Virus record (IMG/VR): IMGVR_UViG_3300024299_000001
Coordinates: 1 to 64,000 of that record
Strand: one strand, 5' to 3'
Source of the DNA: a virus
Length of the DNA: 64,000 nt
The translations under genes were made by a program, and so were the position numbers. The notes under the pieces were generated by a model that worked only from the letters and a program-made list of their open reading frames with translations, had not been told where the DNA came from and made no database searches. Positions 15,280 through 50,900 of this stretch are shown here, one piece after another (the stretch's first letter is position 1; each line of letters begins with the position of its first letter).

Positions 15280-15368
15280 ATCAGCTCCTTTTACTTTCTT
15301 ATTTAATTATAAGCTATATATTTGGATTTGTACAGCTTTATTTGAAAATAAAATACAGTAATACCACT

Positions 15369-15757
15369 CGTGGGAAAAGTGTATCATACCATATTATATA
15401 GGCGAATTTTTTCTACAGTTTTGATCTTTTTTAGTATAAGCACATCAGTTTGGCAGAGCAATACACGTATTATAGTATTTTAGTATCGGGGTTATACTTG
15501 TGTAAAAAGTGTATATTTTAGTAAAAACAGAGAAATTTTTTTGTTTAGTTTCTCGGTGTTATACTTGTGTAAAAAGTGTATATTTTAGTAAAAACAGAGA
15601 AATTTTTTTGTTGGGATTCACAGAAGAGTGGTGTAAAAAGTGTATATTTCACTGTGTACGAGAAATTTTTTTGTTGGGATTCACAGAAGAGTGGTGTAAA
15701 AAGTGTATATTCTATTGTTTACGAGAAATTTTTTTGTCGGGATTTACATAAGCAGAG
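15369..15757. repeat. Tandem array of 63-67-bp units (4 good copies plus 1 degenerate) with core GTGTAAAAAGTGTATAT ... GAGAAATTTTTTTGT
   Basis: Cores lie at 15500, 15567, 15631 and 15694, with a degenerate copy at 15372. The array is in the divergent intergenic region. Confidence 0.85.
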
Positions 15758-15786
15758 CTTATTAACCCACGGGCCCCCTATACCCC

Positions 15787-15950
15787 ATATTATATATTTA
15801 TTTTATTTTAAAATATTTTTAAATAAATATTATATTATATATTAAATTTTATTAAAAATATATAAAAATTTATTTAATTTTTTTATTTACAAATTTATTT
15901 TTTTATTATATAATATATATATTAAATAAATAATAATTATTTATTTAATA
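15787..15950. other. 164-nt tract composed of A/T apart from a single C (candidate DNA unwinding element or UP region)
   Basis: Direct reading: only C15890 interrupts the A/T run. Confidence 0.8.
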
Positions 15951-15955
15951 GATCT

Positions 15956-15984
15956 TTGACATAATATAAAAGCTTTTATATGAG
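15956..15984 (+). promoter_or_regulatory. Candidate early promoter: perfect -35 TTGACA, 17-nt spacer, weak -10 TATGAG
   Basis: TTGACA lies at 15956..15961, immediately after the AT tract. The -10 lacks the final T. Confidence 0.3.
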
Positions 15985-16116
15985 AAGGCTAGAAGACTTC
16001 ACTCTTCTGTAAGAAGAGCGCGAGACTGAATAGCCTGCTTATAAGAAGAGTGTATAACTGTGAGACTCTGATACTGAAGAGTCTCACTCGATGGCCTAAG
16101 CACAAGGAGACTTACT

Positions 16117-16302
16117 ATGAAATCACTAAACTTTGAAACTAACGAAGCTTATATCGCATGTGATTTTGAAGAAACATTCGACAGAACACACTTCAACGAA
16201 TACTTGAAGAATACTGAGATACATGATATGACTGAGTATCTCGAAACTCTTGTACCAGTGTACAGAGCATCGCACACTGACTTTGTTAAACGCCCGTACT
16301 AA
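16117..16302 (+). CDS. Early hypothetical protein (acidic)
   Basis: 61 aa with RBS AAGGAG. It is the first ORF of the plus arm. Confidence 0.55.
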   Translation: MKSLNFETNEAYIACDFEETFDRTHFNEYLKNTEIHDMTEYLETLVPVYRASHTDFVKRPY

Positions 16303-16381
16303 TCAACACAAACATCCGAACAGCGCTCGGGCGATGTAAAACTAAGCGCGTTTACAACACTCAACTTATAAGGAGTACATC

Positions 16382-16708
16382 ATGGCCAAAGCAAAAGAAC
16401 AAAGCGTACAGTTGACTAACACTACAGAGCTGAAAAGCTGGACCAAACCTGAACTTGTAACTGCAGTAATTGAGTATGAAGACTTGCTCCTTGCACTTGA
16501 GAGTAAAATCTCAAGTGTGAAGGTGCCTGTAACAGGGCGCAAAGAACAAGTACTGAAAATCTTGAAGTCAGCTGGACACATAAGCGTCTCAGCTATTGCG
16601 ACGCGCATTGGCATCAGCCAACGCAATGTGTCTTCGCAGATGACATACCTCCGCAAGGACGGTCATGCAATCGCGACCGACTCGCTCGGTCGTAAATTTC
16701 TTGAGTAA
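16382..16708 (+). CDS. Winged-helix DNA-binding protein, paralog 1 (SSQMTYLRKDG family)
   Basis: 108 aa with RBS AAGGAG. The C-terminal 55 aa are near-identical in pattern to the 18233..18562 product. Confidence 0.7.
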   Translation: MAKAKEQSVQLTNTTELKSWTKPELVTAVIEYEDLLLALESKISSVKVPVTGRKEQVLKILKSAGHISVSAIATRIGISQRNVSSQMTYLRKDGHAIATDSLGRKFLE

Positions 16709-16734
16709 TTAACTGATGTCTTCTAGCCTTCTAT

Positions 16735-16786
16735 ATGCGCTGCTCAATAACGAGCAGCGCAACCCTTAACAAGGAGAATGACTATG
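16735..16786 (+). promoter_or_regulatory. Intergenic module copy 1: 9-bp GC hairpin (GCGCTGCTC-aataac-GAGCAGCGC) plus AACCCTTAACAAGGAG RBS plus start
   Basis: This is a nearly identical 52-nt block found three times. The hairpin lies at 16737..16760. Confidence 0.8.
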
Positions 16787-16999
16787 GCTATTGTTTATGT
16801 AGTAATGCTTGACGTAAAGTATGAAGGTTCAACACTCAGAAATTTGTTTAGCAATGAAAACGCAGCACGCAAGTACTGCGCGGCTAATGCCAACGACGTC
16901 GAGTATGATGACGTGAGCTTCTCAATTCACGAGATGACTGTGATTGACGAAGTAAATGTTACCGAGGCTGATGACAAGTATGATCATTACGACTACTAA
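16784..16999 (+). CDS. Early hypothetical protein (acidic C-terminus)
   Basis: I chose the second ATG of ATGACTATG as the start, because the first is only 1 nt from the RBS. Confidence 0.55.
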   Translation: MAIVYVVMLDVKYEGSTLRNLFSNENAARKYCAANANDVEYDDVSFSIHEMTVIDEVNVTEADDKYDHYDY

Positions 17000-17006
17000 C
17001 CTTAAC

Positions 17007-17058
17007 ATGCGCTGCTCAATAACGAGCAGCGCAACCCTTAACAAGGAGGATGATTATG
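17007..17058 (+). promoter_or_regulatory. Intergenic hairpin+RBS module copy 2
   Basis: The hairpin lies at 17009..17032 and has the same sequence as copy 1. Confidence 0.8.
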
Positions 17059-17241
17059 ACTAACCCTAACCGATCTAAAGTTCTCAATGCTGTTCAAACA
17101 TCAATCAAATCAAACGGTTATTACCGTAATGATATGATTGCCAAACAACTCGGTATCCCTAAGCGTGAGGTAAGCAAGATGCTTACTTACCTTAGATGCG
17201 ATAACGGCCACGACTTCACGCGGTATAGAATGAACCGCTAA
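17056..17241 (+). CDS. Short winged-helix-like protein, divergent paralog (KMLTYLRCDNG)
   Basis: 61 aa. The pattern IAKQLGIPKREVSKMLTYLR parallels IATRIGISQRNVSSQMTYLR. Confidence 0.5.
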   Translation: MTNPNRSKVLNAVQTSIKSNGYYRNDMIAKQLGIPKREVSKMLTYLRCDNGHDFTRYRMNR

Positions 17242-17249
17242 CCTTTAAC

Positions 17250-17301
17250 ATGCGCTGCTCAATAACGAGCAGCGCAACCCTTAACAAGGAGAATGACTAT
17301 G
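17250..17301 (+). promoter_or_regulatory. Intergenic hairpin+RBS module copy 3
   Basis: The hairpin lies at 17252..17275. Confidence 0.8.
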
Positions 17302-17490
17302 TCTAAACGTGTTAACATTTCAATGCCTGAAGAATTATATGCAGACGTTAAGAAATATAATCTTAATACTTCTAAAGTATGTCAAAAAGCTTTAGAGACT
17401 GCAATACGATTTGAGAAAGGTAAACGCCGACACCGTCAAAGCATGATTGATAATGCTCATCACATTATCAAAGCTTTACAGCGTGCTTAA
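17299..17490 (+). CDS. Ribbon-helix-helix (CopG/Arc-like) small DNA-binding protein
   Basis: KRVNISMPEELYADVKKY..NTSKVCQKALE fits the RHH strand-helix-helix pattern. Confidence 0.45.
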   Translation: MSKRVNISMPEELYADVKKYNLNTSKVCQKALETAIRFEKGKRRHRQSMIDNAHHIIKALQRA

Positions 17491-17573
17491 AACTCAATGC
17501 CTTAACCATCCGACGCGTCTGGGTGATGTAAAACTTGGCGCACTAACTCTAACCCTTAACAAGGAGGATGATT

Positions 17574-17915
17574 ATGACTGAAACATTATTTACATGTATG
17601 ACACTGGCTGAAGCATTAACTAAAGAAGCTGACGCAGTAAGAAAAACTGAAGACGACATGATGTCTTATGTCGAATGTTACAACGGCCTCGAGCGTATAC
17701 ACCACGATCTGTATACACATGCTGAACTCGATGATCTTAGCGAGACGCTTGAAGCGAACGGCACATGTGACATAAGCATGGACCTTGTACGAATAATGAA
17801 CATATGTCTTGACGGCTTCGGTAAATCTGACGTAGCAAATACACTACGACTACCGATTAGCAACAAGATAATGCAACTCGTACACTTTCTTCATTATCTG
17901 CACAACATGAGTTAA
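17574..17915 (+). CDS. Early hypothetical protein
   Basis: 113 aa. It is preceded by the RBS half of the module (AACCCTTAACAAGGAGG) without the hairpin. Confidence 0.55.
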   Translation: MTETLFTCMTLAEALTKEADAVRKTEDDMMSYVECYNGLERIHHDLYTHAELDDLSETLEANGTCDISMDLVRIMNICLDGFGKSDVANTLRLPISNKIMQLVHFLHYLHNMS

Positions 17916-17930
17916 CCACTAACAAACACC

Positions 17931-17986
17931 AATGCCTCATTGCTTATGATTTACTATCATAGGCGGTGAGGCATTGATGATAGTAA
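17931..17986 (+). promoter_or_regulatory. Two interleaved inverted repeats in A-B-A'-B' order (pseudoknot topology)
   Basis: A is AATGCCTCA (17931-39) and A' is TGAGGCATT (17967-75). B is TTACTATCAT (17951-60) and B' is ATGATAGTAA (17977-86). Confidence 0.7.
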
Positions 17987-18120
17987 GCCCGGCCCAGTGG
18001 GAGAGCGCGGCCAAGTATCAACCAGTACAGAAGATCACGGTCCAGCATCAGCTCACCATCGTCCCAATTTACTATCACCCGGCCCCGCTGGAGAGCTCGG
18101 CCAAGCGCGATACCCAGTCC

Positions 18121-18170
18121 CACACCAATTGCACCCGGCTATTTACTTCCCCGTGCTTTGGTGATATAAT
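18121..18170 (+). promoter_or_regulatory. Sigma70-type promoter cassette P1: TTTACT-17 nt-TGaTATAAT with upstream CACCAATT box
   Basis: The -35 is at 18142-47 and the -10 at 18165-70, with extended TG at 18162-63. Confidence 0.8.
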
Positions 18171-18232
18171 TATATTATAAAGAGTGAGGGAATAATCCTT
18201 CATTTAATAAATACCAAGCAAGGAGGTCCAAC

Positions 18233-18562
18233 ATGGCCAAAGAATTGATGAGTATGACCAAAGAAGAATTGGTGGCAATGATTGAAGCACAGTCAGTAGA
18301 GATCAACAAAGTGAAGGATGCAGCTGGTGGCCGGAAACTTCAGGTATTGAAGATACTTCAGACTGGAGACCACACCACAGTGAAAGCCATCGCTGCAAGA
18401 ATCGGTATCTCAGACAGGAATGTCTCATCTCAAATGACGTACCTCCGCAAGGACGGATATGCCATCGCAACAGACAGTCTTGGCCGGAAGTTTCTTGAAT
18501 CCACAGGTCAGGTGCATGAATCAGCTGGAGCCAAGGTTATAACCAGAAAGAAAGCAGTATAA
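18233..18562 (+). CDS. Winged-helix DNA-binding protein, paralog 2
   Basis: 109 aa with RBS AAGGAGG. It contains VKAIAARIGISDRNVSSQMTYLRKDGYAIATDSLGRKFLE. Confidence 0.7.
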   Translation: MAKELMSMTKEELVAMIEAQSVEINKVKDAAGGRKLQVLKILQTGDHTTVKAIAARIGISDRNVSSQMTYLRKDGYAIATDSLGRKFLESTGQVHESAGAKVITRKKAV

Positions 18563-18620
18563 CAAATAACCTGTGCGGTGAGTCTATCTCACCGCACAAT
18601 TTAATCAGGAGGAACTCAGT

Positions 18621-18749
18621 ATGGTTGATTATTATGATGAGTACAGCGACGAAGAGTATGAGGATCTTGACATTGAATTCTTTGTACCCGACTCGCCAGG
18701 TAGACGGTGTAACTGTGAAGACGCACCGTGTTGTGGATGCAATCAATAA
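18621..18749 (+). CDS. Small acidic, Cys-rich protein (42 aa; hand-called)
   Basis: AGGAGGAACTCAGT-ATG has the same RBS and spacer as the next gene. The product is MVDYYDEYSDEEYEDL...CNCEDAPCCGCNQ. It is below the ORF-track size cut-off. Confidence 0.45.
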   Translation: MVDYYDEYSDEEYEDLDIEFFVPDSPGRRCNCEDAPCCGCNQ

Positions 18750-18764
18750 CGGGAGGAACTCAGT

Positions 18765-18953
18765 ATGGCCAAGAAGAGAGTCTTTAAAGAGCATATCGTC
18801 ACGGCTGTGATCATCAATCACCAGCTGTATGTGATGGACTTTGTTGAGCAGTATGAATCAGTAGAACATGCGATCTTTGCAAAGTTCGGCATCGACGCTG
18901 ACAATGAAAATTATCACGTACTGTGGAGTGGTCCACGATACCACATAGGTTAA
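18765..18953 (+). CDS. Hypothetical protein
   Basis: 62 aa with RBS GGGAGGAACTCAGT. Confidence 0.55.
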   Translation: MAKKRVFKEHIVTAVIINHQLYVMDFVEQYESVEHAIFAKFGIDADNENYHVLWSGPRYHIG

Positions 18954-18957
18954 CAGT

Positions 18958-18996
18958 AATGCCCGGGCATCTCAATGTGTCCGGGCATTTTTATTT
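18958..18996 (+). terminator. Rho-independent terminator
   Basis: AATGCCCGG ... CCGGGCATT is a 9-bp stem followed by TTTTATTT. Confidence 0.75.
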
Positions 18997-19050
18997 ACTA
19001 TCATCGGCGGGACTGGAGAGCTCGACCAAATAAGATCTGGATTCTAGAAA

Positions 19051-19068
19051 AATGAGCGACCGCTCATT
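19051..19068. promoter_or_regulatory. 18-bp palindrome AATGAGCG-ac-CGCTCATT (operator-like)
   Basis: Perfect 8-bp arms. GCTCAT half-sites recur at about 19370 and about 19627. Confidence 0.5.
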
Positions 19069-19386
19069 GTGGCTACTTCATAGCTACATTTGCTCTAAGC
19101 TACTGATTTTACTACATATAACCAGAGGTAAAATCGAGCTAAATTTAGGTCTTTTTATATTCTATTAACTCTTTTTATCTAACTACTTGTTTTTATTATA
19201 TATATTAATAAAATTGAAAGAATTAAGAGAAATATAATATAATAGAAATACAAGGTTGTAAAAGACCTGGGGTTATTGTATATATAGGCTACGGTGTATG
19301 TATTATTGATCCTTTTTACCCTTCTGTAGCTTAAAAGGATAGAAAAGTTTTTATTGAAATTAGCTCATGCTCTTCAAAAAAGGACA

Positions 19387-19600
19387 GAATATCTAATAAA
19401 ATCAGCTACTTAGAAAATAAGAGTCATTTTAAGCAAAATGAGAATACCTAGTTATATCAGCTACTTAGAGACAAAGAATTACCGCGAGGCTCTTTGTAGA
19501 CTACGCACTTTTTGAGAGAATACCTAATAAAATCAATAGCTTAGGCCCATTTTCTCGAAATATACACGAAATAAATTATCTAATAATATCAGCTACTTAA
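19387..19600. repeat. Four direct, imperfect 27-bp repeats (GAATAYCTAATAAAATCAGCTACTTAG) separated by 28, 49 and 29 nt; one inverted partial copy at 19095..19111
   Basis: Copies lie at 19387, 19442, 19518 and 19574. They sit inside an 820-bp non-coding region. Confidence 0.8.
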
Positions 19601-19673
19601 GTTTGAGCCGTCATTCATTTTTTATTAGCTCATTTAACCTGAAATATTAACCCACAAACACACAAAGTGCGCT

Positions 19674-19724
19674 CAACACCAATTATCTCTGGCTATTTAC
19701 TTTCCAGCTCTTTGGTGATATAAT
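19674..19724 (+). promoter_or_regulatory. Sigma70-type promoter cassette P2
   Basis: The -35 TTTACT is at 19696-701, the spacer is 17 nt, and TGaTATAAT places the -10 at 19719-24. A CACCAATT box lies upstream. Confidence 0.8.
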
Positions 19725-19779
19725 TATATTATAGAAGTGAGAAGGAATTAAAAATCAACACTTAAGCAAGGAGTCCCGT

Positions 19780-20494: not shown

Positions 20495-20713
20495 ATGATT
20501 AGCAACGCTGAATTATCACAAAGGCAAACTCTGCGTGACCGTGGCGAAAGCCCTGACAAGTTAGACAAGGAGACGACTGAGGAGTTTCTGCAACGAGGTG
20601 GTAGGATTGCAAAGATTCCGAGGGGTATGAGTGGTGAGACATTTAACGCGTTCCAATGCACGAAGGAGGCACATAAGGATGGCACAGTCAACGATCCAAA
20701 AGAAACAAAATAA
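20495..20713 (+). CDS. Hypothetical small protein
   Basis: 72 aa with RBS AAGGAGG. Confidence 0.55.
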   Translation: MISNAELSQRQTLRDRGESPDKLDKETTEEFLQRGGRIAKIPRGMSGETFNAFQCTKEAHKDGTVNDPKETK

Positions 20714-20917: not shown

Positions 20918-23302
20918 ATGGCAACTACAGTACTACGTAAAGACGATCCACATTTACTAACACTCACACAACTCAACTTTAAGAAAATTCCCAACTCCCT
21001 TAAGCAGCATCCCTTCTGGATACTATGGCAACCTCGGCATCAGCACAACTCTACAAAGATACTTAAGACCCCATTCGGTGGCAAAGCATGGCAGAAACAG
21101 ATACAGTCCTGGGATGACATTGTGCCGCACTATGGCAAGCAACAAAAGAACATACCGACTGGACTGGGTTTCGTGTTCACCAAGGACCATCCATTTGTGT
21201 GCATCGACATTGACGACGTCACACCGACCAACTCAAGGATGCAAAAAGAACTTGACTCATACACTGAGCGATCTCCTTCTCTCTTGGGTACGCATGTCTG
21301 GGTGCAGCTCTTCAGCATCAAGGACAAAGCGAAGTTAGAATCCTACTTCGGCACTAAACGATTTAATAAGACACACAAACGTGATTTGTTTATATCATCT
21401 GGCTATTGTACTATCACTGGGGGACATGTCAAGACTACCCCGACTGATGTGCGCATTTACTCCTTTGAGGACTTAGTTGACATACTAGGCCAGTACTTCA
21501 ATCAAAAGATTGTCTCCCTGGAAGAGCACCGTCAAGAAGCAGTTCAAACAAGCAAGGTACTATTCCCCCGCACCAAGCGACAAGCACCAATCTCTGCAGA
21601 ACAAGCAAGACTCCTACTACGTAAAATCGACGTCCGCACCTTGACATCTGACATATTCGACAACTTGACTCATCCTACAAGACTAGCGATCCTAAACCCA
21701 GATGAGACAGAAGAAGCGCGTGAACCATGGATGACAATCTGTCAAGCAATTCATCATAACTTTGGTGGTGAGCCAGATGGTCTTCTACTTCTACATGAGT
21801 GGAGTAAGAAGGGTAACAAGTATGACAAAGAGGCACTCATGTCGGTGTACGAGTCATTCTCTACGGCGCCAGAGTTTCTTAATCAACAAAAACCAATAAC
21901 AATCGGTACACTCATTGCGCTGGTCAAAGCACAGAGACCGGACTTCAACGATCTATCTCCGAAGGGAAAGCCTGTCTCCACAATTCAAAACTTAGAGGCG
22001 TACTTCAAGTTCTACAAGTATCATATGGCGTTTAACATCGTCACACGTGAGGTAGACATAGCGATGCCTAAAGCCATAGTAACAACTCTGGCCGACAAGA
22101 CTATTAGAATCTTTGATATAGACAGAGCATATCGTATCATCGCGTCTGAGTTATTGAAGCTCGGTTTCGCGAATAAGAACTTTATAAATCTAAGAGAGTC
22201 AATTCTAGACTATGCTAAAGTAAACTCATATAATCCAATAGAAAACTACTTTAATAAGATATATGCTGAATATGATGAAGCTCAAGATCCATTAGAGGAT
22301 CTTATGAACACTATCACGTTCGACAATACGATACGGACTAAGAATGCTCAAGCAGCGGTCAAGGTGTTCTTTAAGAAGTGGCTGACACAAGTTGTCGCGG
22401 CGGCGAATACCTCACAAACACACTCGACCAGGATATTCAACAACCTGATGATCTTGATCGGTGAACAGGGTGTAGGTAAGACTAAGTGGGTTGCTTCGCT
22501 CTTTCCAAAAGAGATTCAACAATTCTGTGCAGGTAGTGGCAACTTACAGATTAACCAATTTAGAACTGACAACGTGAAGCAAGCTATTGAGTTACAGCGC
22601 ACGTTGATCTGCAACATCAATGAAGTAGACTTACTGTTCAAGGAAGGCTCGTACTCAAAGTTCAAGCAACTTCTGGATGAGACGACCAACTCGATGGTGT
22701 TACCTTATGGCAAGACTGCTGTGCAGATGACACGACGAACAGTATTTATAGGTAGCACGAACAAGCGTCACTTCTTAGTAGATCAAACAGGTAACAGAAG
22801 GATAACTCTGGTCCATGTTGACGACATGAACTCAGAACATACTATGGACCTAGGGCAACTTTGGGCACATGCTGTGCACTGGTACCGTGAAGAAAAATGC
22901 TGGTGGCTTGACCCTAAGAATCCAGAAGATAAGGTGGCAATTGAGGTGCAAAACAAACTAAATATGCAAGGTATGTACATTGGTGATGACGGCTTGATGG
23001 AAGACTTAGATCACTACTTCAAGCTAGACGCTAAGTCAATCCACTACAAGAAAGTAACATTTAAAGACATACGAATGCTGATGCCAAGTCTACATGGTGT
23101 AAAGCTCAACTCTAGGGCATTCAATGTAGCAAAGATGACTTTTCATAACTGGCTAAATCAAACTAAGTTTGGCGAAGTTATGAAGAAGAAAAGTGGCGTT
23201 CGTGCCCAGCAATTCTATTTAGTTCCCCCTATCCGCGAAAAGAAACAAGCTGCATCATTCAAGCAAGCTGCACTACTAGATGAACTAGAATCTCTCGCCT
23301 AG
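20918..23302 (+). CDS. Bifunctional prim-pol / VirE-D5-type primase-helicase
   Basis: The N-terminal GLGFVFTKDHPFVCIDIDD is a prim-pol DxD block. The middle PWMTICQAIHHNFGG is PriCT-like. The P-loop is LIGEQGVGKT. Confidence 0.85.
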   Translation: MATTVLRKDDPHLLTLTQLNFKKIPNSLKQHPFWILWQPRHQHNSTKILKTPFGGKAWQKQIQSWDDIVPHYGKQQKNIPTGLGFVFTKDHPFVCIDIDDVTPTNSRMQKELDSYTERSPSLLGTHVWVQLFSIKDKAKLESYFGTKRFNKTHKRDLFISSGYCTITGGHVKTTPTDVRIYSFEDLVDILGQYFNQKIVSLEEHRQEAVQTSKVLFPRTKRQAPISAEQARLLLRKIDVRTLTSDIFDNLTHPTRLAILNPDETEEAREPWMTICQAIHHNFGGEPDGLLLLHEWSKKGNKYDKEALMSVYESFSTAPEFLNQQKPITIGTLIALVKAQRPDFNDLSPKGKPVSTIQNLEAYFKFYKYHMAFNIVTREVDIAMPKAIVTTLADKTIRIFDIDRAYRIIASELLKLGFANKNFINLRESILDYAKVNSYNPIENYFNKIYAEYDEAQDPLEDLMNTITFDNTIRTKNAQAAVKVFFKKWLTQVVAAANTSQTHSTRIFNNLMILIGEQGVGKTKWVASLFPKEIQQFCAGSGNLQINQFRTDNVKQAIELQRTLICNINEVDLLFKEGSYSKFKQLLDETTNSMVLPYGKTAVQMTRRTVFIGSTNKRHFLVDQTGNRRITLVHVDDMNSEHTMDLGQLWAHAVHWYREEKCWWLDPKNPEDKVAIEVQNKLNMQGMYIGDDGLMEDLDHYFKLDAKSIHYKKVTFKDIRMLMPSLHGVKLNSRAFNVAKMTFHNWLNQTKFGEVMKKKSGVRAQQFYLVPPIREKKQAASFKQAALLDELESLA

Positions 23303-32957: not shown

Positions 32958-33211
32958 AACGCTTCATAGTTTGGCACAATGATACTGCTGATCGTGTGAT
33001 TGTTGAAAGAAATTGGTTTCAACGGTTGTTGTATCCTATTTGTTTTGCAACTTGTACCGAAATTATGAAGTCAAGCCAGATTAAAATAAAAATAGATTCT
33101 GCTGAAAAGTTTGTTGAGCATATAAAATCACATCTTGCCGATGATGAATATGTAGTTTGTAAGATATGTGGAAAATCCGTTGAAGAAATATATATAGATT
33201 CAACTAACTAA
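32936..33211 (+). CDS. Hypothetical Cys-containing protein (MLNPFKK N-terminus)
   Basis: 91-aa ORF. Confidence 0.55.
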   Translation: MLNPFKKERFIVWHNDTADRVIVERNWFQRLLYPICFATCTEIMKSSQIKIKIDSAEKFVEHIKSHLADDEYVVCKICGKSVEEIYIDSTN

Positions 33212-41693: not shown

Positions 41694-41963
41694 TTACCTC
41701 AGTACCATCAAAACTAGATTTGGTGTACCAGCAGACGCTTTAGCGTAAAATATAGTCTCACCTTTAGCTTGTGCTATATCTATATTAAAAGTTTGATTTG
41801 CTAAAGTTAAGCCATTTACTGTACCTGCTGTAGTATCAGATATATAAAATGCTGTTCCGTCGTCTACCCAAAAACTAATTGACCCGCAGCTTTGTGAAGC
41901 ACCTAGCGATATAGCAGTGTAGGTACTTGTGTTTAGCGCTGTTACGACCAGAGGTTGAATCAT
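41694..41963 (-). CDS. Small beta-rich structural protein
   Basis: 89 aa. Its ATG overlaps the stop of the giant gene. Confidence 0.5.
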   Translation of the reverse strand: MIQPLVVTALNTSTYTAISLGASQSCGSISFWVDDGTAFYISDTTAGTVNGLTLANQTFNIDIAQAKGETIFYAKASAGTPNLVLMVLR

Positions 41964-44900
41964 AATGTACTCCTTTGTTTTTCGTACTTGTTTGGTTTAA
42001 AAGTTTGCTTCAAATTTCTATTTAGCCATTTGCCAGTTATATAAGGTATCAAGAGCTTGGGCTTAGAAGTATACACTGCATTGTTGTATGCACGTATCTT
42101 GTCTGCTAAGTCCATTAATATTTCTGGGTCTTGCTTATATAGTGGCAAAGTGTAAAATCTGTTGTAGCGTCGTAGTATGTCAGACCGGTCTGCAGTGTAC
42201 TCTCTACGTTCTTGCGTCTCTGACCATTGACGGTCACGGATAGCCGAGAGTCTTGACGGACTGAATGAGAAGAGTCTGAGTATAACTTCATACGGTGTGC
42301 TCTTCAGTGGTGTCGTACCGTGATACACAGGTGCATATGAACCAGTAGTAAGTCCTTCAGTAAACTCTCGTTTACCCTTGATGATATTACCCAGTGCTCT
42401 AGGTGCTAAGTCCTCAAGTCCTTTCTCAGTTTCACCAAATGTGAAGTGCTCGTACGCTTTGGCAAAGTCTGACCATATGGCAAGTGGTGCACCACCAATC
42501 TCTATGACCTTCTTAGGAAATGGACTATTCATCTGGAGTGATCCAGTCATGTCTATTCCAGTTGTTGCACCAATTAAACCTGTACGAGCTATAGTATCTG
42601 ATCCAGTTAAGTCTTCAATAAATTGGTAGAACCTTTCTTCTGGGTCTTCGTGTCCTGGCCACATAGCTTTGATAAGTGTAGTTAACATAGTAGCTGGTAC
42701 TCCAGCCAATAGAGCTGGCGCCATCAGCATATACAGTGGCGCAATAATCTGTTTCTTGTTAAGTCCAAGGTCAAGCATGTTCAGTATGTAGTTGTGCTGA
42801 AACTTCATAAATGTAAAGGGCAAGTCAAGTAGTCGTATCTTCTGGATAACCCAAGGCTTGGCTGCTTTACCATATGTACCATGAGCTTGACTTGATATTT
42901 CTTTGGCATGCTGCAGCAGTTCTTTATGCGCTTTCTCAATCAGCTTGGGGTCTTTAGAAGAGTTCAAGGTAGTGTTAATTCTCTTATACATCTCCTTATC
43001 AGACTGTCTTAGAGCTTTATAAGCAGCAAATATAGTTGTAGCACGATTCACCTTCTCAGTTGCTCCAAACATGACCATAGCGTGTTTTAGAATCTCATTA
43101 AAGACTCTAGAACCTATACCTTGTATTACACGAGCAGCCTCATAGTTGAAATTTGCTTCATCCCAGCCTTGACTTGTTATGTAGTCAAATATCGCCTTAT
43201 CTTCAGCTGATAACGTGCCTGAACCAACCAGACTATGTATACCTAGTTTCTTAGATAAGCCAGCTCTGTATTTTGTATACTGAGTAACACTGTTTGCTAC
43301 ATGCTTTCCAGACTGTGCAAGATTTAAGCCAGTGTAACCAGTAATTGTAGCAGGTACAGCAAGTACCATATTTGTCAAGTTGACTGCTGCTGAACTTACA
43401 CGACCACCTAAGTACATGACGACTGCTAAAGCTTTGAAGTAACCAACAGCTCTGTCAAACCCTGTATCAGGCTTTAAGAAGAACTGCATGTATAAACGTG
43501 TTGCTTTATATAATCCTTTCTGGGTAGTAGGATCAATTGCTTTTTTCTTTACTTCAGTCAAGTAGTCCGTGTACGTGCCTTTCTTGTTAGTCTTCTGCCA
43601 GTCTTTAAATGACGTTTCACGACCTGTAAAAGCTAGGAGCATGTTACGTGTTGTTGTACGACGTGCTTCACCAGCAGCAAGTCGCTGTGCGTAACTTGTA
43701 AAAGCTTTATTCATGTCAGTCTCGAAGCCAGCGTAGTATCTTTTAGATCGCTGTTTACGTGATGTCAGTCTACCTTTTATCTTATACACGTCTGCAATGT
43801 TCTGCGCCATTTGATTGTGTATAGACTGCAGTACTTTAGTATCAGCGTCTTTCTTAACATTTTCTTCTGCGTTCTTAAGTAACGAGTCCATAGATGTTAT
43901 GAGCCCAGGAACATCAAAGATCACATCAGTAGGTGTAGGAGTTACTTTTATACTTACGTCATAACCGAGTGCTTTAAGACGTCTTGCTTCCACACCAACT
44001 GGCATTCTTGTATTAATCAACTGACGTGTCTTATTTACCCAAGGAGAAGACAATACGTTCTGTGGCAGATACCCTGAGTAAGTCTTTGTCACTAACTTAC
44101 CGTTTGAGTGCTCCGCTTTTAGAACATAGGCTTTACTCTGTCGTTCTCTAGGAAAGTAAGTACCTCGTAAGTCGCCTATCCTTGTTATTAACTGGCTAAT
44201 GGCGAGCTGCCGTGTTTTGCCTTTGTCATCTGTATATTGTGCTGTAGGAGCTTTAAGTCCATTCTCTTTGGCACTTGCAACTTGGCGTCTTAGCTCTTCT
44301 GTTAGTAGTGTAAAGCCTCGGTCAGTCAACAAACGTGCTTCTTTCACCATGTCCAGAGATGCTTGATTGAACTTGCGTTTCTTGAGCATCTGCTGCTCGA
44401 ATGATATCATCTTGCGTGTGGCTTCTTCTTCAGTCTTAGCTCTTCCAACAACTTTGTTAGATGGGTTCATCACTAGCCATGTAGTCTTCACCACTTTAGC
44501 GTTCTCAGTCTTTGTCACTGTGCTCTTAGTCTTTACTGAATATCCTCTACCTGTTGCATCTGTCTGCAGTAAGTAGTCATTAGCAATCTTGTAAGCTTTC
44601 TTGTAGCCACTAGTCTTCTTAAGATTCTTAATCAAGTTAGTCCAGTTACCGAGCACGAACTTCTCAATAGTATATTTAAGGTTATCTTCTCGTAATGCAT
44701 GACTCATAACCTTCTTGGCTTGTGCACCACGTCTCAAGTAATACTCAGGAGAGTTAAACAGTAAGCCCATGATACCGATGTTCTGCTCATGTGCTTTCCT
44801 TGTGAAGCCGTCACTTTCATCAAGCTTGTCAGATTCGTCAATCACGTTGTTGAATAGCTTAGCAATCTTAGCACGTAAAGGCACTTTAGAGGTTTCTTGA

Positions 44901-47900
44901 TCTTTCATCACGTCTCTAAAGAGCTTCTCTGCCTCTGCCTTATTGTCACCCAATATCTCGCCATCTAGTTTAGCTTGTTCAGCTTTAGTACGCACCTTAG
45001 CTGCGAGTGGTACTTTATCAGCAGATACGGTGTCGATAAGCTCTTGATTAAACTCAAACGAATTAAATTCTTTACCTGCTTTTGCGTAGTCTTTTATCTT
45101 GGTTGTAGTTAACTTACCACCGCCATATGGTTTAAATAACTTAGTAATAGTTTGTGGAAGATACTCTGTGTACTTCTTTACTATACCATCAACTATTTGA
45201 ATACCTTCAGTTGAGTCATATATCCATTTACCATCAGCATCTTGTCTAAAATTACTAGGCCAACCTTCTATAGCTGCTACATGATAAGGAGTCTTTGCCC
45301 AGATAAGTTTTGTGTGTCCTAGTGCTACGGCTTCCATAACCGCTCGTTTAAGAGCTAACTGAGTAGAATTGTCTTTAAATGGAAGATCGGGCTGTGCTCT
45401 AAGACTTTTTTTAGCTAAGAATGCTGGTTCTATAAGTTTTTCCATAACTTTTGAATCACGAATTATACTTTCTACGTCTTGTACAGAGATAGATTTACGT
45501 ACGTCTCTAGACAATCCACGTATTATATTAATCGCTAAATCTTCTGCGTCTACGTAAATAGCGGGACTATATGGACCAAAAGGACCAAAGAAACGTCCTT
45601 CCACGTGTATTTTAAAGTTTCTTTTTACGTCTTTATCATCTAAGTTTTTCTTCGTTATAGGAATAGTATCGTGCATCTTATTGACTATATAGTTTACATA
45701 ATGTTTAACTTTGGCATTTCCAGGTTCAGTTAACTGCCTTAGTTTAAGCGTATTTTTATCATATGTTTTTTTATCAGTATACCCGTACTTCTTTGCGTCT
45801 TGATGAGTATCAGACTGAATCTCGTGTATATATAATCCGTCACCTATAGAAGATACACGTAAATGTACTACTTCATTTTCTAACCTAAAGTGTTTACCTT
45901 TTTTACTAAGTTCAGTGTCTTTTATAGCTGGAATTTGTATAATTATCTCTTGGTAGTCTTTTAAACCTGTGGCTGTTGGTAAAGTAACATAGTCAGCTTC
46001 AACAGGCGCATTTCTATAAGCATCGCTAAATAAGGCGTCTTGTACCTCAGTTAAGTAACCTTGATCTTGTACAGCGTCTCGAATAATTCGCCAGTCTTCT
46101 ACTAAGTCTTCGTCAGCAAGTAAAAAGTCTTTGCTTTGTTTACTCATTAAGTCAGAGCTAATTGGAGCTAAACTATCTCTAAGAGAATTACTGTCTAAAG
46201 ATGTGTCGTTTAAAACATTAATTAAAAGATGATCCCGTACTTCAGGATATACACCTAAATTGTCTAACTTATCACGAATTATGTCTCTGAATACTATATA
46301 CTTATCATCCACAGCTACAATTAGTGTAGCAAAAGTATAAGACTCGCCTTTATTAAAATCACCATTTATATCTGGATACTCAGTTTCATTAATAGGCTTT
46401 GTTAAAAGTTCATTAACTCTATTAACAGCAGGTCCCGAAAACCCACTAGCTCGTTCAGCTATATAGTCTTCTGGATTTATACCTTCTTCATGTAACTGAT
46501 CAAATAGTGTTATATCGCGACCACCTAGTACAGTCTCATCCATTCTTGCTTTTAGGCCGTACTTAGCTAAGTGGTCCATAACTTGCTGCTTAGTAACTTT
46601 GCCTTTCTGTTTCTGCATCCACTCACGTAAATTAGAAAAGAAGAACTCTTCTTTTACATGAATCGGCATAGACTTGTTTGTCCAAGACTTAAATGTGTTA
46701 AGCCAGTTTTCAGGAGTCGCTTTACCTGGACCCTTAGCTTGTATGAAGTCGTCTTCAAGTCGTGAAGAAAACTTAGGTGCCAACTTAGAAGCTTTAGGTT
46801 TCGTTGGCGGTTTTAAAGGCAGTATATCAGCGTTCTTTCTGTCTTTGGCTTTCTCTAGTACGGTAATATTTCCAGGTGTTGTCATACCACCCTGAGGCTT
46901 AGCTTTATAACCACCAAAAGCGTCATCATATACTTTTGCAAAAGCTATCATGCCAGAAGTTAAAAAATCATATCGTTGTTCTAACTCAGCTTTTAACTTC
47001 GTGTACTCCCTAAATTTAAAAATACCTATTTCAGCTGTTAAAGCTTGCTTAGCATTCCATATTTTCTTTCTAGCTTGTACGTCAGTATCTTCAGCTTTTA
47101 TACCTGTTGCAGCGTCCCAAATTTTAAAAACTTCAGGTCGCATAGCATAATAAACTCGATCAGCTACTTCTACAGGAGTAATTGCAATTCTGTCGTTTAC
47201 CGACGTTTTATCGTAAGCCGACTTTGCAGGGAATTTTATTATTTTAGAAGCTAAGGGAATATCATTACGTTTTTTAACTACAGTTTGATTTAGTATTTTT
47301 TGATCCCATATAACGTAGTTAAAAGTTTTTCTTTCGTATCTTTTATACCGCGTCCAACCATCAATGAAACGTAAACCTGGAATACCAAATTTTTTAAACT
47401 CTAATGACGCAGCTTTATCTGATCCAAGCGCTTTAGATACGGCTCTGTATATATAACTACCTAGAGTATTATTATTTATACGCCGCATGTGAAGCTTGTT
47501 TTTGTATGGCACACTGTTTTTTCTTTGTACACTGTTAATAAGCTTGTGCATCTTTGCTCGTGCCATTGGTTTTTGTTGACCTAATGTTCTATCCCAATGA
47601 AAAAGTTGACTTATAGCAGGCGAAGGCATTTCTAACTTATACAAAGACGCGTCTTTATTAGTTGAGCGCGTAAAGTTTATCTTAGCTTGTTTAAGTTTCC
47701 AAGCATTTATAAGATGCCCTGCTTGATCATATAAAGGCAGTAGCCGTGCATTTTCAAAAGATGCTTGATCACGACGTAAGGCTTCAAGTTCAATATCTAA
47801 ATACCACAAAGCATCTTCATATATTTCTTGTGTGTCGTGTATATGTGTAGTACCATTAAATGCAAATCCTACATATGCAAGTGCTATATCTTCAGCAGTA

Positions 47901-50900
47901 TTAGCGTCAACAAACTGGCCGAATAAAATTTTAGTATTATATGCAGTAGGATTGAACTTAATTTTCTTGCCATTTACTGTTACACCTGTTATATTATACG
48001 CTGGAAACTGAAAATACTTATAGTAGTCTAATCCAGTAGCCTTCATTTGGGCCCCATAAAAACCCCAACCATAAGTTTGTACGCCTGATCCAGTACTCAT
48101 TTTATCTAAACGCGGTCTACCGTGTTTAAATCTTGATTCTTTTTGCCAAGTAACTGGACTGCCATGATATACTCTAGACGCAAGTGGAGCTGAACTTGTT
48201 AGTGTAGTATGTCCAAGCTTATTTCTGAGAATGTTACCGACGATCAAACCCATCTCATATCCAGATAAGTTCTCGGTCATGCCTAACTTACGTTTCAACC
48301 AAGCTTTAAGCTTGAAAACCATCTCTTTATAGAACGGGAGCTTTGTGTTAGCTTCATTCTGGATGTAGTGCATCAGAGTTTCTTCTTCCCATACTTCTGG
48401 TTTACTAGGATACTGTTCCTTTACCCAGTTATGTATATCGAGCAGGACTTTATCTGTCTTGATTCTCTTGGCTGCTGACGCTATGAAGCTGTTATACATT
48501 GCTTTGAATTGCTTGTCTGAAGCCAAAAGTAGATGACCGCCTTCATGGAGTATAACACCCTTGGCTCCACCAGCTCTCACAAGATTCTCAAGCACTAAAT
48601 ATAGCTTGCCTTTCCAGTAAACACCAGCAACTCTGTTCTTTTCACCTTTGGAGTACTTAGGATCGTCAAAGTCAAGTTCCTGAGTTGAGTCATATTCTTC
48701 GAGGTTAAACTCTTTCTTCACTCCATCTGGTAAGTCTTCCTGGTAGTCTACTGCCTCTACTTTTGACAGGGGGTCATCGATACCCATGTCTTGCATATCC
48801 TGCACAACTTGTGACTCTACGCCTCGAATTTTTATTTGTTCAGCTTTAGTTCTTTTAATGACTTTTTTCTTAGGTTTGGAGCCTTTCTTAGCTGGTTTCG
48901 AGCTCTTTTTAGCTTTCTTAGTAGTAGCGCTAGTCTTCTTCTTTTTAGTCGATTTTTGGCTATCTATAGGCTCCGACTTTTCTACTTTTTTCTTAGCTTC
49001 GCTCTGTGATTCAAGCTCGCGTATTTTATCTTCTATTTGTTTAGCAAATTCAGGGTCTTTCTTCTTATACTCAGTCAGCATACCTTTTAATTCAGCTATG
49101 CGCTTGTTAATAGCTTTAACAGATGGAGTACCACCAAAGAACCTATCAATAGCTGCACTCATTTCTTTTTTATCGGTGATAGGAGAAGATTCTTCTTTTT
49201 TAGCTTCGCTCTGTGATTTCTTAAGGTTCATTGTAGCATGCAGACGCTTTACTTTTAAATCATGAATTATCTTTTTTGTATCAGTTATAACGTCTTTATG
49301 TGCGCCACCTTCTTTGGCATGCTTTAATACATACTGCTGCCCGGCTATCTTGGCGTTAATTTTATCTAACTCAGATTGTTCTTTTGATATTACTTTTGTG
49401 TCTTTATTCTTTGGCTTTGGAAGCTTGGTACTCTTCTTTTTTGTCTTTGGCTTTTCTACTTTCGTCTTCTCTTTAGACTTAACCTGGCCTTTCTTATCTT
49501 TTGTAATTGTCTTCTCTTTGAACTTGGGTTTCCAGTCAATTGGTACCCAGCGAACTCTGCCGTCATCAAACTCAGCTCGTTTTATAAAACCTTTTTTCTC
49601 AAGGACTTTAAATGTCTGTGCAGTAACACCAGTTTTAGGACGCTCTTCTTTTTCCATGGCGTCAATGGCTTTTTGATTAAGCCACTTGAAATTACCAACA
49701 ATTTTCTTACCATCCATAATTACAGGATAAGGCTTATAATCGTTTTCATCCAGGAGAGATTCCTGTATTTGACCTAAAGCTAGACGTTGAAATTTACTCA
49801 GAGGCTTTTGCTCGCTTGCTTCAGCAGCGTTAAACGGTGTAAACTCTTTCTCTGTTTCATTCGATTGTACATATGGGCCAACTTTAGTCTTAGTATTTTG
49901 TTTTTTAAGCTGAGCTGAATATACTGTACTTGCAAACTCCGCTTGCATTACTTGTACTTCTTTTTTGTCTTTTGGTAGTCCTGTGTCATTCGTTTTTTTA
50001 TTTACATACGCAGTAAAGCTGGAGTGCTTCTTAGCAAAAGTTAACTTTTGAGCAAGAGACATCTTACCCCATTTTATAGTATCTGGCACAGGTAGTATAG
50101 AGTCTTTGTCTTTTACTTCTTCTGTCTCTTTCTTTAAGCCCTTAGTCTCGACCTTAATACTCTTCATATTAGCTTCGCCACGTAACTCATTCTTCTGAGC
50201 TGCTGAGTATCCTTTCCAGTCTTCTTCTGTTACGTTGGCAAGCTTGATTACTTCAGCATCAGATAGCTTCTTCGGCTTAGGTGTTTTCTTGGGTGCAGCT
50301 TCTGCTTCACCAGTGTCTTCACGTATAACAAAACCACCCTTAACTTGCTGAACTTTAAACTTTTTCTCTGGATCAAGCTTCCGTATCTTAAGAGCACCTT
50401 CTGCTTTTTTCTTTGTTGTATATGGCTTAGTACTACGTGCAGGAAGTAAGTCACTTTCAAGCATGTCACTTAAGTCTTCTTCAGTGATTACTTCTTCTGC
50501 ATCTGTGGTTTCTTCAGTTTCTTCTTCCTCTGTTTCTTCTATTGTTTCTTCTTCAGCATTCTCAGCAAACTGAGTAGTAGTTGGTTCTTGCTGTACTTCG
50601 TCTTGAATACTGTCAGGTACAGATAAGTCTTTTTTAATACCTGACTTAGTTGCTGCTACAAATGCACCAGCACCGCCTATAGCACCACCTGATACACCAG
50701 ATTCTACTATACGTTTTATATTCTCAGGTGTCAGAAACTTCTCATCTGTATTAGCAACAATATTAAGTATTGAACTTACTTCCTGACCAGCTTCCTGTAA
50801 CATTTCTGATGGTATATTTGTAAGCAGTTTTTTAGCAGCACGTTTTAAGTATGACCCAGGCATGCCTTTAGCAATAGCACCTACAAAGTCGTCAACTAAA

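Follow-up and report, generated by a model that had tools for sequence, protein, structure and literature searches.

The gene-free island at positions 18954–19779 of the window (by which we mean the whole 64,000-nucleotide stretch of viral DNA that was analyzed) contains a central region of ∼570 bp, 19048–19633, that appears to be a cis-acting protein–DNA assembly site and, judging from its sequence, is probably, on balance, the replication origin of the phage. It lies between the terminator of the early genes and a conserved σ70 promoter, which the array of repeats could instead serve. The sequence-only reading had favored either origin iterons or, upstream of a promoter, an array bound by a regulator. 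This view holds in kind, as the sites are conserved, confined to the gap, opposed around an AT-rich stretch and upstream of both the replication module and a promoter, but for the 27-bp repeat itself the best reading is a predicted host IHF-type bending site, in preference to an initiator iteron. The features of the region are as follows.

18233–18562, plus strand: winged-helix (HTH_11) protein with an N-terminal coiled-coil-like segment; paralogue at 16382–16708
18958–18999, plus strand: intrinsic terminator at the end of the upstream (early) gene block; 13-bp stem with 7 G-C pairs, then a T run
19048–19068, no strand: perfect 8-2-8 palindrome (palindrome proper 19051–19068), from its sequence a candidate operator for a dimeric protein
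19095–19119, minus strand: predicted IHF-type site L1, ATATGTAGTAAAATCAGTAGCTTAG, core AATCAGTAGCTTA; matrix score 26.9 bits, perfect WATCARNNNNTTR match
19167–19173, minus strand: short iteron m2, AAGAGTT, on the ACTTAG side of site L2 at a distance of 5 nt
19179–19203, minus strand: predicted IHF-type site L2, ATATATAATAAAAACAAGTAGTTAG, one mismatch to the core consensus; matrix score 21.8 bits; inverted repeat
19190–19250, no strand: candidate DNA-unwinding element, abutting and overlapping site L2
19218–19224, plus strand: short iteron m2, AAGAATT, on the TTATCT side of site L2 at a distance of about 15 nt
19389–19413, plus strand: predicted IHF-type site R1, ATATCTAATAAAATCAGCTACTTAG (matrix and consensus); iteron AAGAGTC next to it at 19419–19425
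19444–19468, plus strand: predicted IHF-type site R2 (matrix and consensus)
19520–19544, plus strand: predicted IHF-type site R3 (matrix and consensus)
19576–19600, plus strand: predicted IHF-type site R4, ∼96 bp upstream of the −35 element of the promoter at 19694–19724
19604–19633, no strand: right-hand boundary elements found by repeat search, an inverted relative of the left palindrome and a ATTAGCTCAT half-site
19694–19724, plus strand: conserved σ70-type extended −10 promoter, TTTACT-17-TGaTATAAT, serving the downstream (replication) operon
20918–23302, plus strand: Prim-pol, PriCT-2 and SF3 (VapE/D5-like) helicase protein with a C-terminal winged-helix-like domain, a candidate self-loading initiator

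No ORF of at least 40 amino acids was found inside the island, which confirms it as ORF-free. At 826 bp it is the second-largest non-coding block of the window and not, as had been thought, the largest, falling 11 bp short of the 837 bp of 15280–16116. The latter region is a competing origin candidate because it is even more AT-rich (100% A+T over 60 bp) and also carries tandem repeats. The cumulative GC skew reaches its minimum near 22 kb, away from the island, and is not diagnostic. A search for DNA similarity between the island and GenBank phages found none. On its left side the terminator stands directly 3′ of the stop codon of the ORF at 18765–18953, and the palindrome AATGAGCG-AC-CGCTCATT is present where it had been described; related elements occur in three other loci, GACGCTCATT in L064, GTGCGACGCTCT in L008 and AAAATGAATGACCCCTCATTTT in L013 (loci with three-digit numbers are those collected for comparison). 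The GCTCAT half-sites said to flank the array were likewise found, as ATTAGCTCAT at 19359 and 19624. The reverse complement of the right-hand palindrome relative reads AAAAATGAATGACGGCTCA, and this boundary element is identical to L013 6971–6988 at 16 of 18 positions. Downstream, the promoter is followed by a ribosome-binding site, AAGGAG, at about 19768 and an ATG at 19780.

The four direct 27-mers at 19387, 19442, 19518 and 19574 are present with the gaps of 28, 49 and 29 nt previously noted, at spacings of 55, 76 and 56 and with 77 to 81% identity to the reference copy; a 27-mer allowing three mismatches or fewer was not found once in 100 shuffles of the window. The inverted copy at 19095 also exists, but it is full length (19095–19119) and not partial as first described, and a second inverted copy at 19179–19203 had been missed, which brings the total to six and not five. 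The motif that the island copies share is 25 nt long (tTATcTAATaAaATCAagtACTTAg). Two left-facing copies (19095 and 19179) and four right-facing ones (19389, 19444, 19520 and 19576) give the order −,−,+,+,+,+ around the AT-rich stretch, and the six sites together span 506 bp. When the 64 kb were scanned with the motif matrix, six matches of at least 18 bits were obtained, all of them within the island.

This geometry bears on the proposal that the island is a mini-CRISPR array or a set of solitary repeats mimicking a host CRISPR repeat. The resemblance, four direct copies separated by unique segments of 28 to 49 nt, is superficial. The copies are degenerate and unevenly spaced and stand in both orientations, two of the six being inverted; no Rfam CRISPR direct-repeat family was matched, and the spacer-like segments had no match in phage and plasmid collections at E up to 1, the repeat itself being the only part that matched. 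The six loci that we fetched, which represent four contigs from four samples, do not differ at any position of the island (100% identity) and thus show no spacer turnover; contigs this close say nothing about conservation of the island. Furthermore, no cas gene is present among the annotated neighboring and large ORFs, and in unrelated elements the 25-mer occurs singly beside replication, packaging and integration genes. CRISPR mini-arrays and phage solitary repeats therefore share with the island only the look of repeats with unique segments, and differ in orientation, degeneracy, spacing, repeat-family match, spacer match and turnover, and context. On the grounds of degeneracy, inversion, absent repeat and spacer matches and absent turnover we reject this explanation as far as sequence analysis allows, and give it next to no credence.

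The case for an IHF-type site comes from the two halves of the 25-nt motif. The 5′ half is TATCTAATA and the 3′ half is the IHF consensus WATCARNNNNTTR, the N positions of the consensus being the variable ones of the motif: positions 17 and 18 have the lowest information content among 22 copies, and all four bases occur there across 94 independent contexts. Against the core consensus WATCAANNNNTTR, with R tolerated at the sixth position, five of the six window copies are perfect and the sixth has one mismatch, and the A/T-rich tract TAATAAAA stands 5′ of the core. The island, which makes up 1.3% of the sequence, holds 5 of the window's 12 perfect WATCARNNNNTTR matches.

Phage lambda offered a comparison. 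Scanned with the motif matrix, lambda gives as the second-best of about 97,000 positions the segment 73–97, located between inverted repeats that we take to be lambda R3 and R2. IHF consensus matches occur at only four places in lambda, three of which are presumably H1, H2 and H′ of attP; with the full 25-nt matrix H1, H2 and H′ fall outside the top 20, and lambda H1, AATCAACTACTTAG, and window R1, AATCAGCTACTTAG, differ at 1 of 14 bases. The IHF site I1 of lambda has been placed between R3 and R2 (PMC4856287), so that the matrix ranks I1 second in the whole of lambda. The IHF consensus has been described, as has its dependence on neighboring A/T (PMC10380432). A tblastn search of the window and about 170 loci with E. 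coli probes detected no phage-encoded IHF or HU, although remote homologues may escape such a search. IHF in the host, which is a probable proteobacterium, we infer solely from the hosts of the relatives and from the promoter type; a conserved host protein other than IHF is a less likely binder.

The motif extends well beyond this phage. Viral contigs gave about 45 unrelated contexts with its 23-mer core and genomes gave 49, the latter mostly in Proteobacteria but also in Bdellovibrionota and including genomes of 63 to 67% GC. At BLAST level no protein family is shared by all the loci with the 25-mer. The exact motif is absent or weak in E. coli genomes, cultured phages and plasmids, collections that hold little unique sequence; site R3 is the only part of the array to match cultured phages, namely intergenic DNA of Agrobacterium phage 7-7-1 and Roseobacter phage CRP-738. 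A literature search for the motif sequence gave no relevant match. Elsewhere the 25-mer lies between iterons 200 bp after Prim-Pol/DUF3987 genes (L040 and L049), upstream of TerS–TerL–portal genes (L088) and of terminase genes in the L029 lineage, and between a tRNA gene and a tyrosine integrase gene (L113). Origin, packaging and att settings are the three classic settings of IHF. The 25-mer also occurs in tail-gene gaps, and its presence in terminase, integrase and tail-gene gaps means that presence alone does not mark an origin.

These settings raise the question of whether the island is a packaging or genome-end site, cos- or pac-like as lambda cosB is, or another recombination site that uses IHF. 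The upstream position relative to terminase genes in the L029 and L088 lineages speaks for this, as does the bracketing of the inner left site by inverted short repeats, which recalls lambda R3–I1–R2 (PMC4856287); a mild enrichment of sites near contig ends (9 of 39, compared with 6.7% expected) is weak. However, the island lies 3.7 kb from the terminase genes (a TerS-like ORF), the contigs of this phage do not end at it, and no integrase is among the annotated ORFs, which cover part of the window. The element CCCCTATACCCC, which stands at the contig end of L018 and, in the terminase-linked lineage, keeps a constant distance of 121 bp to the site, occurs in the window at 15775, in the other gap, beside the terminase genes and not in the island. 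A cosB of the lambda type adjoins a terminase small-subunit gene and a genome end, and the island adjoins neither. We consider a packaging or recombination site very unlikely.

A second, shorter motif, AAGAGTCTA, accompanies the 25-mers and is a candidate phage-specific iteron distinct from the 25-mer. Its heptamer GAGTCTA is enriched 21.6-fold. The short iterons lie 5 to 8 nt from the 25-mers and form clusters with an 11 to 12-bp period, which is clear in L015, L016, L017 and L010. In the window the short iteron is weak, with one exact copy and two copies with one mismatch. The copies at 19167 and 19218 bracket site L2 as an inverted pair; a copy 5 nt beyond the ACTTAG end of the inner site is also found in L008, L010, L012, L015, L016 and L017, and the inner left site is bracketed by short iterons in seven of seven lineages, where the alignment columns AAGA.T are invariant. 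GAGTC/GACTC (GANTC, the CcrM site) is enriched 2 to 6-fold in the islands of the relatives and barely in the window. We considered control by GANTC (CcrM) methylation and, the window enrichment being too slight, make no case for it.

The primase relatives were gathered via a protein database, an IMG/VR peptide-pattern search for them having returned none. Relatives whose primases are 36 to 57% identical have the same architecture together with AAGAGTCTA, with the sites in a gene-free gap that runs from a conserved winged-helix gene to the primase(-helicase) module. The order of left-facing sites, AT-rich minimum and right-facing sites is kept in L008, L012, L013, L017 and L064, and in L010 with one exception; L064, which has this layout, is an unrelated contig. 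The AT-rich core that had been described is real, 19190–19250 being 92% A+T, with only one 60-bp stretch of the 64 kb less stable, and the least stable 60 bp are found at the same place beside the inner left site in the islands of seven of eight lineages.

The island could also be a control region for an early-to-middle transcription switch that takes no part in replication initiation, in which IHF bends and the conserved winged-helix protein regulate the promoter at 19694–19724 and possibly a central promoter. Its position speaks for this, exactly between the early terminator on one side and, on the other, this σ70 extended −10 promoter, which is strongly conserved (93.5% identical in L008 and 90% in L010, with equivalents in L013 and L017); in L008 and L017, as in the window, a site precedes the −35 element by about 100 bp; and a winged-helix gene of regulator type adjoins the island in eight of the nine related lineages examined. 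Promoter-like hexamers are also found in the center, including the σ70-like pair TTGAAA-18-TATAAT at 19214–19243 inside the AT-rich stretch, and the centers of L008 and L013 contain degenerate copies of the downstream promoter. On the other hand, such promoter-like matches number 5, and 5.3 were expected from shuffles, and six opposed bends over 500 bp with a melting-prone core far exceed the known IHF-assisted promoters. Moreover, unrelated phages carry the module beside primase–helicase genes with textbook iterons and an AT-rich stretch. Regulation of transcription as the sole function appears rather unlikely to us, though it is compatible with a replication origin.

It might also be supposed that structured non-coding RNAs, one or several, are made from the island and that its inverted copies pair in them as long-range helices. 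Folding of the plus strand is more favorable than that of shuffled sequences (z = −4.0), and sites L1 and R3 are 84% complementary because they share a central tetranucleotide. Any inverted DNA repeats would give such a z score, however, so that the low folding energy can be traced to the repeats, and the minus strand reaches only −2.1. Opposed copies in L010 do not have complementary central tetranucleotides, nor do L2 and R1 of the window, there is a terminator just before L1 and no promoter upstream of it, and the 11 to 12-bp period of the short iterons belongs to duplex DNA. A search of Rfam at E up to 1 gave no match in the island and, over 17 to 22 kb, only microRNA-like chance matches outside it. 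As neither a described family nor compensatory changes that support a helix were found, we regard a structured RNA as highly improbable.

Under the preferred reading as a replication origin, host IHF would bind the six sites and bend the DNA sharply, while a phage protein would bind the short iterons that bracket the bends. This protein could be the primase–helicase, through its C-terminal winged helix, or the small winged-helix protein encoded upstream. The wrapped complex would melt the AT-rich stretch 19190–19250, two helicase hexamers would load in opposite directions, and the prim-pol domain would prime synthesis. In addition, the right-hand sites may stimulate transcription of the replication operon, whose promoter lies about 100 bp further downstream.

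Both proteins were considered as binders. The small winged-helix protein is a candidate site-specific binder because its gene precedes the island in so many lineages. A part for it as reader of the 25-mer is weakened by L012 and L013, in which it is only 30 to 36% identical and yet the 25-mers are perfect; it may still read the 25-mer, as the R/K-N-x-S-S start of its recognition helix is kept. The helicase domain of the primase–helicase is homologous to PriRep1 (PDB ID: 7pds, E = 2.5e-18), and an AlphaFold model of the protein (mean pLDDT 76) has as its best structural match 7pds, PriRep1 with dsDNA, at E = 1e-16 over almost the whole chain (479 to 497 alignment columns for a chain of roughly 450 residues). 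In this model residues 691 to 769 follow a helix–strand–helix–helix–hairpin order with pLDDT of about 73 to 86, from which we infer that the C-terminal domain is probably a winged helix. The phage group itself comprises little-known podophages that combine an N4-type virion RNA polymerase, a P22-type portal and a SaPI-like self-loading primase–helicase.

Among described systems, the Rep origins of SaPIs have an AT-rich region with oppositely pointing iterons to its left and right (PMC9371898), and they resemble the island in these opposed binding sites and in the neighboring fused primase–helicase gene. SaPI iterons are, however, 5 to 6-nt Rep sites with no host-factor site reported, whereas in the island a 25-nt IHF-type site is dominant and the short iteron secondary. 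The SaPI origin lies immediately downstream of rep, and the L040 and L049 modules are likewise downstream of their initiator genes, while the island is upstream of the primase–helicase gene, by 1.1 kb in the window and directly adjacent in four relatives; the hosts of SaPIs are Firmicutes and that of the phage a probable proteobacterium. Lambda cosB (R3–I1–R2–R1) and attP share with the island the core and an IHF-type site with inverted short repeats on either side, but the island is not beside terminase or integrase genes, has six sites in 506 bp compared with one in cosB and three in attP, and possesses an unwinding-prone AT core that they lack.

The origins of plasmid pSC101 and the γ ori of R6K are IHF-assisted iteron origins. 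Such origins are like the island in combining initiator sites, an IHF bend and an AT-rich unwinding element, and the L040 module is a clean example of one with this 25-mer. In E. coli oriC, too, an IHF site (IBS1) and an unwinding element have been described (PMC10380432). Known IHF-assisted origins have one or two IHF sites and many iterons; in the island the IHF-type sites outnumber the recognizable iterons and form two opposed arrays.

We suggest, more tentatively than the assignment of the origin and as a view that could well prove wrong, that the 25-mer is an unrecognized "super-consensus" IHF-type site, reused across proteobacterial mobile elements as a plug-in for origins, packaging sites and att arms, and that in this phage group the origin consists mainly of two opposed bend arrays, six sites in 500 bp, with the initiator iterons only vestigial. 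If true, the motif would be a portable marker with which ori, cos and att sites could be located, and proteobacterial hosts inferred, from the genomes of uncultured phages; that a site of 23 to 25 nt recurs in about 45 unrelated viral lineages suggests that ori/cos/att annotation and host prediction by such a marker could be simple. Origins of uncultured phages are almost never identified, and here a conserved candidate origin is delimited with base-pair precision and can be tested. Its dense array of opposed bends could help to model the way in which architectural proteins of the host may take the place of initiator iterons.

The 18954-19779 interval (the island) contains no ORF of 40 aa or more in an ORF search. 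At 826 bp it is the second-largest ORF-free gap in the window rather than the largest non-coding block, as the sequence-only reading had it, the interval 15280-16116 measuring 837 bp. It belongs to a podovirus-like phage arranged as follows.

Minus strand: structural and packaging genes, including a P22-type portal and terminase
16117-18953, plus strand: small early genes, including two paralogous winged-helix proteins
18958-18999: intrinsic terminator that closes the early gene block
19694-19724: sigma70-type extended -10 promoter that precedes the first gene 3' of the island
After the island: replication module, comprising a prim-pol/PriCT-2/VapE-type helicase (20918-23302, the primase-helicase), a DUF2800 nuclease, PolA, ligase and helicase

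Four direct repeat copies are present, separated by unique segments of 28, 49 and 29 nt, and the perfect palindrome (19051-19068), the ATTAGCTCAT half-sites (19359 and 19624) and the AT-rich core were all found again; the least stable DNA of the core and of the island, 19190-19250, ranks second across the 64 kb. An inverted copy described as partial does exist but is full length (19095-19119), and an additional inverted copy, missed before, lies at 19179-19203. The 27-mer, allowing ≤3 mismatches, did not occur in shuffled versions of the window. The suggestion of a mini-CRISPR array was rejected: the copies are degenerate, their spacing is uneven, both orientations occur, no repeat family matches them, and spacer turnover among samples is absent. 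The spacer-like segments had no match in the phage and plasmid collections at E values up to 1; the repeat alone gave hits, and these fall between genes of Agrobacterium phage 7-7-1 and of Roseobacter phage CRP-738. We regard a CRISPR-like array as practically out of the question. As a cis-element the island is real and conserved, and it is not CRISPR.

Because contigs of the same phage do not differ anywhere in the island, we fetched relatives with diverged primase-helicases (36-57% identical to that of the window). Upstream of the primase module, all lineages have a gap of 0.74-1.4 kb that is free of genes; it is directly 5' of the primase gene in four lineages and preceded in eight of nine by an orthologous winged-helix gene. 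This gene is single copy in most relatives and always adjoins the island; the two HTH_11 paralogues of the window (16382-16708 and 18233-18562) share 64.5% identity, and both have a coiled-coil-like segment at the N-terminus. The window repeat corresponds to a 25-mer conserved among the relatives, tTATcTAATaAaATCAagtACTTAg, which in a matrix search (a motif scoring model built from its copies) exceeded 18 bits only within these gaps in the loci scanned. The conserved layout consists of two left-facing copies 84-97 bp apart, a centre of 185-246 bp that starts with the island's least stable DNA (in most relatives also the minimum of the entire 8-18-kb locus), and one to four right-facing copies. 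Outside this layout, conservation of the DNA sequence is confined to the promoter at 19694-19724, which shares 90-94% identity with two relatives. That the island works as a structured RNA is very unlikely, as it has no Rfam match and no upstream promoter, and the variable positions of opposed copies are not kept complementary. An additional repeat family, (T/G)GATGATAGTACTTYCC, absent from the island of the window, occurs in three to four copies in both orientations in the gap upstream of the site array in three relatives:

L012, 6870-7135: (T/G)GATGATAGTACTTYCC repeats
L013, 6640-6800: (T/G)GATGATAGTACTTYCC repeats
L017, 4030-4440: (T/G)GATGATAGTACTTYCC repeats

The 3' half of the 25-mer, ATCAR-NNNN-TTR after an A/T tract, matches the IHF consensus WATCAANNNNTTR, and its information content is lowest at the consensus N positions. 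Affinity for this consensus depends on flanking A/T (PMC10380432). The window holds 12 perfect consensus matches, five of them inside the island. The 5' half, TATCTAATA, is also strongly conserved, exceeding the textbook consensus. A 23-nt motif pattern matched exactly in 101 viral-contig stretches, which fall into 45 distinct flank contexts (37 non-coding), and 52 times in genome contigs, mostly from Alpha-, Beta- and Gammaproteobacteria, Bdellovibrionota and Acidobacteriota; some of these genomes have 63-67% GC, a composition at which matching by chance is essentially impossible. The flanks of the matches carry no information, and the consensus N positions carry all four bases. Lambda, examined as a control, has only four perfect consensus matches, three of which we take to be attP H1, H2 and H'; H1, AATCAACTACTTAG, is one base apart from the window repeat core AATCAGCTACTTAG. 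The best matrix match in lambda lies upstream of pL, a region that has IHF sites, and the second best among ~97,000 positions, 73-97, lies between inverted repeats that are presumably R3 and R2. IHF site I1 of lambda has been placed between R3 and R2 (PMC4856287).

Elsewhere, the 25-mer is found in the three classic IHF settings. In two origin-like loci, L040 and L049, it sits amid phage-specific iterons, and the stop codon of a Prim-Pol/PriCT-1/DUF3987 primase-helicase gene lies ~200 bp before it. By its sequence L040 reads as a textbook origin, with six inverted 9-mers repeating every 11 bp, three direct 9-mers abutting the 25-mer, three more after it, and ~55 bp of almost pure A+T at the end of the module. 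In a packaging-like locus (L088) the motif is immediately 5' of TerS-TerL-portal, and in an att-like locus (L113) it is flanked by the 3' end of a tRNA on one side and a tyrosine integrase gene on the other. The motif-bearing loci share no common protein family, and probing with E. coli IHF/HU sequences detected no IHF/HU homologue encoded in them, which argues for a host-encoded binder. We consider the 25-mer likely to be a host-factor site of the IHF type. The earlier proposal of origin iterons or a regulator-binding array holds for the cis-element and its probable origin function, but the repeat itself appears to be an IHF-type site and not the iteron.

A second, shorter motif emerged when 7-mers were counted in eight islands against their own flanks with the 25-mers masked: GAGTCTA was enriched 21.6-fold and present in seven of eight lineages, and TAAGAGT and AAGAGTC were enriched ~10-fold. 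The element, (A/C)AGAGTCTA, lies 5-8 nt past the ACTTAG end of 25-mers in the same orientation, and forms clusters with an 11-12-bp period in four relatives (L010, L015, L016 and L017). All seven aligned lineages have an invariant right-facing AAGA.T ~15-20 nt beyond the opposite end of the inner left 25-mer, so that this 25-mer is bracketed by inverted short sites. The short element differs by lineage (AAGAGTC, ACGAGTC, AAGAGTA), as would be expected of a phage-specific protein-DNA pair, and the 25-mer does not vary like this; the short element is weak in the window itself.

The candidate initiator, and a candidate binder of the short motif, is the primase-helicase, whose N-terminus matches phage NrS-1 prim-pol in sequence and whose helicase domain matches PDB 7pds. 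Its AlphaFold model (mean pLDDT 76) has 7pds ('PriRep1 with dsDNA') as best structural match (E 1e-16, 479-497 columns, ~450-residue chain), and residues 691-769 are ordered helix-strand-helix-helix-hairpin, as in a winged helix. The Rep/PriRep proteins of SaPIs, which are self-loading initiator-helicases, use a C-terminal winged helix to bind short iterons, which flank an AT-rich region on each side in opposite directions (PMC9371898). We propose that host IHF would bend the DNA at the six island sites, and that a phage protein, either the C-terminal winged helix of the primase-helicase or the small dimeric winged-helix protein, would bind the short iterons gathered by the bends. The AT-rich stretch at 19190-19250 would then melt, and two helicase rings would load in opposite directions, with the prim-pol domain priming. 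The right-hand sites may additionally stimulate the replication-operon promoter, whose -35 element lies ~100 bp downstream of them in three lineages. Purely transcriptional control would suit the position between terminator and promoter and the adjoining regulator-like gene, but leaves the opposed arrays, the melting-prone core and the L040/L049 parallels unexplained; we consider it rather unlikely. We favor, with modest confidence, the view that the island is most likely an origin of replication of the iteron-plus-IHF kind, and one that would be unusual in consisting mainly of two opposed arrays of putative host-factor sites.

The 15280-16116 gap separates the minus-strand terminase-side genes from the first plus-strand gene. 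Even more AT-rich than the island, it competes with it as a candidate origin, genome end or early-promoter region; GC skew was uninformative. It contains about four tandem ~60-bp repeats, GGTGTAAAAAGTGTATATTTTAGTAAAAACAGAGAAATTTTTTTGTT..., at 15495-15740 and a 100% A+T stretch, the window's least stable DNA, at 15787-15960. It also holds a 12-mer, CCCCTATACCCC, found at:

15775-15786 of the window
7-18 of L018, 6 nt from the end of this distant relative's 61-kb contig
4993 of L029 and in about 16 related contigs, an unrelated, terminase-linked lineage

In the L029 lineage a constant 121 bp separates the 12-mer from the IHF-type site, and a terminase small-subunit-like gene lies downstream of it. 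The 12-mer resembles a cosN-like element, or one recognised by terminase, that unrelated phages have kept. A packaging or genome-end role for the island itself is quite improbable, as the terminase genes are far away and CCCCTATACCCC sits in the other gap.

Several short hairpins lie at 15985-16090, just upstream of the first early gene, including CTCTTCT-GTA-AGAAGAG (7-bp stem, 3-nt loop) and GAGACTCT...AGAGTCTC; they resemble the hairpin promoters of N4-type virion RNA polymerases. The phage also encodes a homologue of these enzymes, a 1,537-aa protein (59375-63988, minus strand) with 27% identity to those of Vibrio and Pseudoalteromonas phages. With its P22/Bcep22-like portal, the phage does not fit the standard Schitoviridae, and no N4 RNAPII-like genes were evident among those plus-strand ORFs that were annotated. 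A 3,275-aa ORF (41960-51787, minus strand) had no PHROG match at E values up to 1e-5. A 72-aa protein (20495-20713) matched the SutA RNA-polymerase-binding domain just below the Pfam cut-off (27.1 versus 29.3 bits), and a 65-aa protein (17293-17490) is CcdA-like in precomputed Pfam hits; the pair may serve as host-RNAP and toxin-antitoxin modulators. Between two of the early ORFs, a long hairpin (17915-17993) scored on both strands against the plant microRNA family MIR2600 in Rfam (E = 0.003). This is far short of the gathering score, and the match almost certainly arose by chance from the palindromic nature of the hairpin, which may act in termination or processing. By coordinate arithmetic, the independent metagenome contigs L001-L003, all three from this phage, terminate at positions equivalent to 32.8-34.0 kb of the window. 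This stretch is AT-rich and poor in long ORFs, its least stable 60 bp being at 33180; assembly may break here, or the stretch may be a variable region or a repeat.

Two cultured phages of Alphaproteobacteria, Agrobacterium phage 7-7-1 (L174) and Roseobacter phage CRP-738 (L175), carry the motif in their own ~800-bp gene-free gaps, which are candidate origins or control regions. In 7-7-1 (41725-41790) inverted ATTGAGTCTTTT repeats flank the motif, and one pair of them carries a rho-independent terminator annotation. In many uncultured proteobacterial phages the 25-mer seems to be a marker of ori, cos and att regions, and 7-7-1 and CRP-738 are culturable systems in which the origin or control idea could be tested.
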